Source: a virus. From it: 64,000 nt of DNA. Both the position numbers and the translations under genes were made by a program. Each line of letters begins with the position of its first letter. Positions within the stretch are counted from its first letter, which is position 1. Below, piece after piece: positions 60,283 through 60,769 of this stretch. The notes under the pieces were generated by a model. That model did not search any database, was not told the DNA's origin, and was given only the letters and a program-made list of their open reading frames with translations. The stretch covers positions 25,419 to 89,418 of the IMG/VR virus record IMGVR_UViG_3300042526_000097; one strand, given 5' to 3'.

Positions 60283-60769
60283 CAGTAGATTTTACATCCC
60301 TAACCGCTCGAACATAGCCGGTGTAGTTCTCGTCGTAGTTGGACTGAGAGCCACTGGCGAAGTACTGATACCAGGCGAAGCCGTTACCGTCCTCACTAGA
60401 ACTCCAATAGTAGGCAGCGGCAAAACCCCCAATACTTTCTCTATTAACCCACATTAGATGCAATTCTTCTCTTGTAGGTAATCTCCAACCATCTCCCAAA
60501 TCTTCACATACTTTCTTTGCATCTTCCCAATTATGTTTTCCTAAGTCTTTGGGATACACTTCAAACTTTAGATGTTGCTCTAATATAATTGGTTTAGGCT
60601 GACTGTACTTTTTTTCAATGTCATGTTCAATCTTAAGGACTAAATCGTGGATAGATAAGACCGTATCAAGGTCTTTCTCTTTGATGTCATAGCCTACTAT
60701 CGCTGAGGCTATTCTCATGTAGTTGAGTTTTTCTTTGTCTGTCATCTTATTTCTTTTTAAATTGTTCAA
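60266..60769 (-). CDS. Lcl C-terminal / DUF1566 (C-type lectin fold) protein, probable DGR target
   Basis: WEDAKKVC..LGDGWRLPTREEL...YWSSSE...AW....YVRAVR; NNC-rich 3' region. Confidence 0.8.
   Translation of the reverse strand: MNNLKRNKMTDKEKLNYMRIASAIVGYDIKEKDLDTVLSIHDLVLKIEHDIEKKYSQPKPIILEQHLKFEVYPKDLGKHNWEDAKKVCEDLGDGWRLPTREELHLMWVNRESIGGFAAAYYWSSSEDGNGFAWYQYFASGSQSNYDENYTGYVRAVRDVKSTDESTT

Follow-up and report, generated by a model that had tools for sequence, protein, structure and literature searches.

The 3′ end of a small gene in the complete genome of a lake-water phage carries a DGR-type variable region, and neither a template repeat nor an RT that could account for it was found anywhere that we searched. 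On balance, we favor the reading that this is an orphan DGR variable region, probably written from outside the phage, which now behaves as a fixed allele and is moved by recombination. The window (the whole stretch of 64,000 nt that was analyzed) is the last 64 kb of a source record of 89,418 bp, which has direct terminal repeats and is rated 100% complete; the runs containing the phage are lake-water metagenomes.

The Lcl_C gene, its neighbors and its product

The features on which the analysis bears are the following (window coordinates; all are on the minus strand).

60266..60745 (-), Lcl_C/DUF1566 gene, 159 aa from ATG, taken from the ORF list
60298..60433 (-), variable-region footprint, 136 nt, codons 105-150, with 17 NNC/NNT codons; delimited by the borders of phage-versus-host identity and by column analysis of 13, then 20 cognate regions
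60299..60427 (-), segment singled out in the earlier note, GC 54%, 20/35 codons C-ending and 0 A-ending
60299..60541 (-), Pfam Lcl_C match, residues 77-157 of a 167-aa ORF starting at TTG
59437..60282 (-), downstream SPL-like gene (spore photoproduct lyase family), Pfam PF20903, E 2e-12

The last 17 nt of the Lcl_C gene overlap the start of the SPL-like gene, and the other neighbors encode a dNMP kinase and a Dps-like protein. The gene is therefore located in a nucleotide-metabolism module and not in a virion module, in agreement with the earlier note, which had placed it among early/replication genes rather than tail genes. No close relative of the gene or of its flanks was found among GenBank phages. 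Note that the SPL-like radical-SAM gene is missing at the corresponding place in a related phage contig, L001 (8067-8074, as located by blastn of the flanks), and that gene order between the window and L001 is mosaic. On the other side of the Lcl_C gene, many contigs in all four lake runs link position ~60772 to ~60950 and thereby omit or replace the ~180 nt that separate it from the next gene (window 60772-60955). Contig depth, when summed, reaches 5-50 times the baseline in the two stretches at its borders (60726-60779 and 60942-60995), and these borders are not repeated within this genome; the interval looks like a small cassette swapped between conserved gene ends.

The 159-aa protein comprises an N-terminal part with two helices (residues 1-47), a linker modeled with low confidence and a C-type-lectin-like Lcl_C domain, and it has no signal peptide. 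The Lcl_C assignment (PF07603, formerly DUF1566) covers the C-terminal half (E 5e-11, 43.4 bits versus a gathering threshold of 34.9) and is the only one in the whole genome. An AlphaFold2 model built with 29 homologs has a mean pLDDT of 79.6, rising to ~90 over residues 60-150. Its best match in the PDB is 8q4e, the C-terminal domain of Legionella pneumophila Lcl (Foldseek E 3.6e-8, TM 0.53/0.64), followed by many C-type lectin-like domains; the same entry is also the top sequence match (profile E 1.5e-15, 32% identity over 101 columns). The likeness stops at the domain: Legionella Lcl is a non-diversified, collagen-like adhesin located outside the cell, with glycosaminoglycans as its ligands (PMC11162425), whereas the phage protein is small and lacks a signal peptide. 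The variable region described below lies at the C-type-lectin fold's C-terminal end, as in DGR targets, and the protein would bind a ligand through this variable surface. That such binding might serve an intracellular counter-defence role, as the earlier note proposed, is speculation, with which only the gene position and the lack of a signal peptide are compatible.

A codon signature restricted to the end of the gene

The earlier note had been drawn to this gene by an excess of C-ending codons and a jump in GC content, and its counts were reproduced. Between codons 109 and 143 (GCC GCT GCC TAC to ACC GGC), the third base is C in 20 of the 35 codons and A in none, versus 17 and 42, respectively, of the 106 codons upstream (Fisher p = 9e-6). 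The GC content of 60299-60427 is 54%, as against 35% in the remainder of the gene and 37% in the genome. Genome-wide, C-ending codons make up 14.4% of the codons in ORFs of at least 100 aa, and when a 35-codon window was slid along these ORFs over the 89-kb genome, only one of the 26,930 positions contained 20 C-ending codons, namely codons 109-143. The codon signature is not due to chance. The motifs said to frame the region (YWSS..AW..VRAVR) are likewise present in the protein, as YWSSSE, AW and YVRAVR.

Two other places in the genome were considered. Only one other 129-nt stretch has a GC content of at least 0.54; it belongs to an island at 14053-14284 (up to 60% GC), which was rejected as a comparable case since it encodes a proline-rich linker with PPPP runs inside a 1969-aa protein. 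A second C-rich window (45317) lies on a spurious frame, with a real gene opposite, and was rejected.

The limits of the region needed a small correction. The signature does fall within 60299-60427, but comparison with the host genes described below gives a slightly wider footprint, 60298-60433, which starts at ATTGGGGGTTTT (60433) and finishes at GTTAGGG (60298).

Related regions vary at the positions expected of adenine-specific mutagenesis

A search for protein homologs returned 370 sequences, in which the scaffold WRLPTREELHLMW..IGGFAAAYYWSSSE is highly conserved and defined positions are hypervariable up to YVRAVR. At the DNA level, 27 related regions were gathered, and the 20 sharing the same DNA scaffold were kept; their sources are phage contigs in IMG/VR, JGI contigs and genomes of lake Bacteroidota. 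Differences among them are almost confined to positions 1 and 2 of NNC/NNT codons. Over the 17 variable codons of the 20 regions, position 1 is A in 143 cases, T in 102, G in 71 and C in 24, and position 2 is A in 199, G in 60, T in 50 and C in 31; by contrast, 334 of the 340 third positions are C or T (98%). The residues encoded (N, Y, S, D, F, G, L, A, T, V, I etc.) form the set reachable from AAC/AAT. Because position 3 is held at C or T in a genome that avoids C there, the pattern points to DGR-type copying from a template rich in AAC/AAT codons, with adenine-specific errors. The core of the template deduced from the 20 relatives hardly differs from genuine template repeats that belong to other DGRs in IMG/VR (GCC TGG AAC CAG AAC TTC AAC AAT GGC ...), and the template that the earlier note had predicted from this one gene is a close match to it. 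We conclude that 60298-60433 is a genuine DGR-type variable region, as had been proposed for this Lcl/DUF1566 gene.

Could the same pattern arise otherwise, through selection for binding loops rich in Asn, Tyr, Ser and Asp, or through horizontal transfer of a GC-richer domain? Lectin-like binding loops are often rich in these residues, and the failure to find a template would fit. However, selection on the protein cannot hold position 3 at C/T (98%) while leaving positions 1 and 2 free in a genome with 14% C-ending codons, the GC-rich part is just 136 nt of the domain, and there is the near identity of the core with real template repeats. We therefore regard a non-DGR origin as very improbable.

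The third positions also inform on when the segment was written. When the window was compared with six phage homologs (the pairs are not independent), third positions differed in 17/252 cases inside the region versus 62/300 at synonymous third positions of the 57 upstream codons. The region is thus less diverged than the sequence upstream of it, which indicates that it was written after the genes had diverged and that phage genes already diverged received the segment from near-identical templates. Its GC-rich, C-ending composition shows no decay toward phage codon usage, and its 3′ end exists in two variants, GTT CGA GCG and GTG CGT GCA. The segment could have arrived by either of two routes, retrohoming in trans or the import of alleles already made. 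Alternatively, the low third-position divergence could reflect rewriting that is recent or ongoing.

No RT, Avd or second copy of the region in this phage genome, and no RT in its relatives

The earlier note had suggested that the gene is, or was, diversified by a DGR acting from elsewhere in the genome or in trans. The first of these possibilities is refuted. In the complete 89,418-bp genome, RVT_1 (PF00078) and Avd (PF05635) each gave 0 candidates at E<=10. Likewise, a DGR-RT profile, built from 60 RTs adjoining template repeats and run on six-frame fragments, which read through stops, had no match in the whole genome at E<=10; the same profile scored 1e-92 to 1e-100 on the genuine DGR RTs of L200 and L232-L234. 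Finally, word-7 blastn and a separate genome search both recovered the variable region itself and no second copy of it in all 89,418 bp. As a positive control, blastn recovered the template in L232-L234, which are distant DUF1566 homologs within a canonical cassette; in L233, 13/14 mismatches between template and variable region are A-to-N. These three IMG/VR loci contain canonical DGR cassettes with 2-3 tandem DUF1566-type targets, a 96-nt template and an RT.

A cassette in cis might nevertheless have been overlooked if its RT were divergent, its stops recoded or its template unusual, and there is a precedent in some crAss-like phage RTs, whose suppressed stops or unusual motifs defeat DGR finders (PMC12386605). 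But template detection depends neither on the RT nor on the genetic code, and it yielded no second copy by word-7 blastn under conditions in which control templates were found; besides, the six-frame searches read through stops. A missed cassette in cis hence appears extremely improbable, even more so than a non-DGR origin, and the two taken together remain quite improbable.

The same holds beyond this phage. RVT_1 was not found in 12 related viral records, which include G316 (160.9 kb, 100% complete), G005 (180 kb) and G001 (75 kb). Four of the 12 records were searched with the DNA of the region (G316, G005, G001 and G315), and each contains exactly one copy. The whole family of variable regions is orphan.

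No cognate template in larger collections

The search for a template was extended to larger collections. In the predicted template, AAC/AAT codons come after the 18-mer scaffold TATTGGAGTTCTAGTGAG, and a further k-mer is GCCTGGAAT CAG AAC TTC AAC AAT. No cognate template repeat was found in IMG/VR, GTDB genomes, JGI metagenomes or host genomes. In IMG/VR, neither the scaffold 18-mer nor three template-specific patterns revealed one: two core patterns had 115 and 85 matches, none of them cognate and all of them templates, GC-rich in their 5′ parts, that belong to other DGRs, and a 3′ template pattern had 0. In JGI metagenomes, a 36-mer template pattern had 0 matches, and a 21-mer (scaffold plus AAC) had 3, all variable regions. 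The scaffold 18-mer occurs in 21 stretches of 185,579 GTDB species genomes, all of which are variable regions or unrelated, and a 33-mer core allowing <=3 mismatches has 0 matches in 301 genomes of the G009 family and 5 further genomes. Short ORFs derived from the template retrieved only variable-region fragments from the protein database. The check proposed in the earlier note, a copy of the segment differing only at adenines, thus came out negative in the phage's own genome and in host genomes, with a positive control that worked.

One genome, G013, contains a genuine DGR RT (L200/L219, G013:C56:26572-28842; 1e-100 to the DGR-RT profile), located at the very end of a contig, and a DUF1566 variable-region gene (L188) on another contig (C50), ~1 kb from its start. 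This RT was rejected as a template source: the adjoining 12.8 kb contain no template, and the genome contains no copy of the L188 variable region. The template probably fell into the assembly gap between contigs. An RT at a contig end with no template beside it illustrates that templates can be lost at assembly breaks.

Secreted proteins of lake Bacteroidota end in the same footprint

In four genomes of lake Bacteroidota, the same DNA scaffold forms the end of large secreted proteins that have signal peptides and are 588-840 aa long; some of these proteins have two such domains, and there are up to six copies of the region per genome. Likely hosts of the G009-G012 types are Chitinophagaceae-like. 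DNA identity between phage and host genes is restricted to the 136-nt block: its borders are abrupt, and the flanks on both sides are unrelated in DNA. We presume that this block corresponds to the footprint of the template. In the four genomes bearing it, neither an RT nor a template was found.

Several features of the host copies deserve mention. In L182, L187 and L190 (G009, G010), two DGR-type variable regions, one internal and one C-terminal, lie ~800 nt apart in one ORF; the L182 and L187 proteins are 588 aa long, and the contig ends within the L190 ORF. One genome of this set has up to six regions on five contigs, with no RT detected. In L181 and L183 (G009, G012), one host region contains an in-frame TAA, and another is frameshifted and has a poly-G run; either decay of these copies or faulty assembly could account for this. 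A small hairpin, CCGC-GAA-GCGG, recurs tens of bases behind the host variable regions L179, L182 and L217 and could be either a terminator or a DGR recognition hairpin.

Since large secreted host proteins end in the very footprint found in the phage, the host, or an element residing with the phage in the same cells, is the likeliest location of the source DGR. The source would thus be cellular or lie on another element. Against a host source, the four footprint-bearing genomes themselves show neither an RT nor a template.

The region behaves as a fixed allele, probably exchanged by recombination

To see what the region does at present, we compared the contigs of four runs (X2, X3, X4 and X6) over 59700-61300, using only the parts covered. 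The contigs spanning the region in X2 (2024), X3 (2016) and X4 (2024), one in each run, have 0 differences. Logan contigs omit rare variants, so that this constancy applies to the dominant allele only; within that scope, the region in this phage behaves as a fixed allele with no sign of rewriting.

X6 (2020) contains a close strain, with 4 listed differences in ~600 nt of the neighboring gene. It has 52 differences over 1072 nt, most of them apparently in or beside the variable region. Judging from the differences listed, its allele is apparently that of the phage sequences L001, P0003 and P0005, and it appears to come with linked upstream substitutions (E74K, seen directly in X6; V79A, D82N, V100I and G107S, from the protein alignment). 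The X6 allele therefore looks like one imported by recombination and not like the product of fresh mutagenesis. L001, P0003 and P0005 share this allele despite having different flanks; those of L001 are quite different and lack the SPL-like gene. Sharing can also be partial: the window and L220 have the 5′ part in common, P0002 and P0004 the 3′ half. Identical or partly shared alleles in different backgrounds imply that alleles are long-lived and recombine. A 5′-to-3′ gradient of allele sharing, which partial 3′-initiated homing would be expected to leave, was not seen (0.38, 0.35, 0.49).

The earlier note held that the lack of any template, together with the lack of variation among reads or relatives, would make this a fossil region acquired horizontally. 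Only part of this picture was found: no template was found in anything searched and the allele is identical in the contigs of three runs, but relatives do vary.

Two alternatives to an inherited, externally written allele bear on these data. The first is that diversification in trans is still going on, i.e. that a DGR of the host or of a co-resident element (Avd, template and RT) uses the phage gene as a retrohoming target during infection, so that the phage borrows the mutagenesis machinery of its host. It would account for the exact 136-nt footprint shared by host proteins of 588-840 aa and phage proteins of 123-171 aa whose upstream domains have diverged in DNA, and for third positions far less diverged than the flanks. 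Moreover, the phage-type homologs in the 29-sequence alignment all have different variable regions on a conserved scaffold, P0003 and P0005, which share an allele, being the exception. Precedents exist: in the laboratory, a plasmid-borne avd-TR-brt retargets the region on lytically infecting BPP-1 (PMC3240598), and remote targets >100 kb away are known in bacteria (PMC5758913). However, the allele is identical in 2016 and 2024 contigs, and fast rewriting would erase the identical and half-identical alleles seen in different backgrounds. No RT or template turned up in the four host genomes, the 301 genomes of the G009 family or the collection scans. The downstream sequence also argues against it. 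Efficient homing in BPP-1 requires a GC-rich hairpin located 4-34 bp past the region; such hairpins have a 7-10 bp stem and a 4-nt GRNA loop, a rule set for phage-related DGRs only (PMC3240598). Within ~150 nt downstream of the phage region there is no GC-rich hairpin with a 4-nt loop, the best candidate having a 4-bp stem; a consistent downstream hairpin is likewise missing from the other phage loci, and hairpins are inconsistent in hosts, where some loci have CCGCGAAGCGG. Ongoing rewriting in trans is accordingly an unlikely explanation.

The second alternative is capture only: ready-made alleles would have been taken from host or other DGR-bearing genomes through the conserved borders (42 nt and ~20 nt) and then spread among phages, the gene never having been a retrohoming target in the phage. 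Recombination is indeed visible, both in the allele of L001, P0003 and P0005, which travels with V79A, D82N, V100I and G107S, and in the partial sharing between the window and L220 and between P0002 and P0004, and DNA identity with host genes starts and stops sharply. On the other hand, downstream homology with the host stops within ~20 nt, which offers little for repeated double crossovers, no observed phage allele is identical to a host allele, and dozens of independent captures would be required. We consider capture alone to be distinctly unlikely.

An allele written from outside the phage and since inherited thus remains the reading that we prefer. Mutagenic retrohoming would have written the 136-nt C-terminal coding segment into the gene of a small Lcl_C binding protein, using a template rich in AAC/AAT codons that this phage does not encode. 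The segment would now be a fixed allele, passed on by inheritance and swapped among phages through ordinary recombination, and the source DGR would lie, or have lain, outside the phage, most likely in the Bacteroidota host or in another mobile element of those cells. Retrohoming as the origin of the segment is deduced from the pattern of substitutions. Three observations weigh against this reading: no cognate template or RT was found anywhere searched, low third-position divergence may equally mean recent or continuing rewriting, and Logan contigs drop rare variants, so that diversification at low frequency is possible.

Discussion

The phage gene resembles the targets of canonical cassettes (BPP-1 mtd-avd-TR-brt; L232-L234) in that the variable region is the C-terminal region of a C-type-lectin fold and consists of NNC/NNT codons; the YW..AW..VRAVR scaffold and the AAC/AAT core of the template are also alike. 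It departs from them in that the complete genome lacks a template, an RT and an Avd and that no hairpin follows the region. In addition, unlike the canonical tail-fibre targets, the target is a small non-structural protein encoded in a nucleotide-metabolism module. It belongs to the DUF1566 target class ("category d / CLec2", e.g. Legionella LdtA), about half of whose members are short, domain-only proteins (PMC5758913).

Targets with no adjacent RT are known from bacteria, as in the Treponema DGR with seven targets (Wu et al. 2018, PMC5758913). These known remote targets, however, share a genome with their DGR and can be matched to a known template, whereas here the target lies in a lytic-type phage genome with no matched template; remote targets are not expected for phage-associated DGRs (PMC5758913). 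The nearest parallel to an external source is the work of Guo et al. 2011 (PMC3240598), in which a DGR supplied by the cell rewrites a region on an infecting phage that is without template and RT of its own. This was a laboratory construct with IMH and hairpin, no natural case being documented in that work, and the hairpin is missing in the present phage. Alpha and Epsilon crAss-like gut phages (Crassvirales) are reported, as cited in PMC12386605, to have fragmentary or silent DGR cassettes whose present activity is in question; their targets are tail fibres and remnants of the cassette lie nearby, whereas such remnants are found neither in this phage nor in the 12 related viral records. DGR surveys set out from the RT and examine its vicinity for targets, an approach that is blind to targets with no linked RT, as Roux et al. 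2021 (PMC8144416) state for their own survey.

The present analysis therefore brings to light a family of DGR-type variable regions for which no RT or template was found, in freshwater Bacteroidota phages (two complete genomes) and in secreted proteins of their likely hosts. Beyond tail fibres, the DGR targets of phages now include a small non-structural protein encoded in the early/nucleotide-metabolism region. A more far-reaching scenario, which we hold to be possible but doubtful, is that a DGR of lake Bacteroidota, or of an element residing in them, diversifies their own secreted surface proteins and, via the same 136-nt footprint, the small intracellular Lcl_C proteins of several unrelated lytic phages, in a natural form of cross-genome retrohoming. 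If the source DGR is extinct, the family would be useful for dating the persistence of DGR-written alleles and their spread by recombination. If it is cellular and still acts on phage DNA, this would be a new kind of phage-host interaction, and a natural instance of the trans-targeting so far known only from engineered systems.
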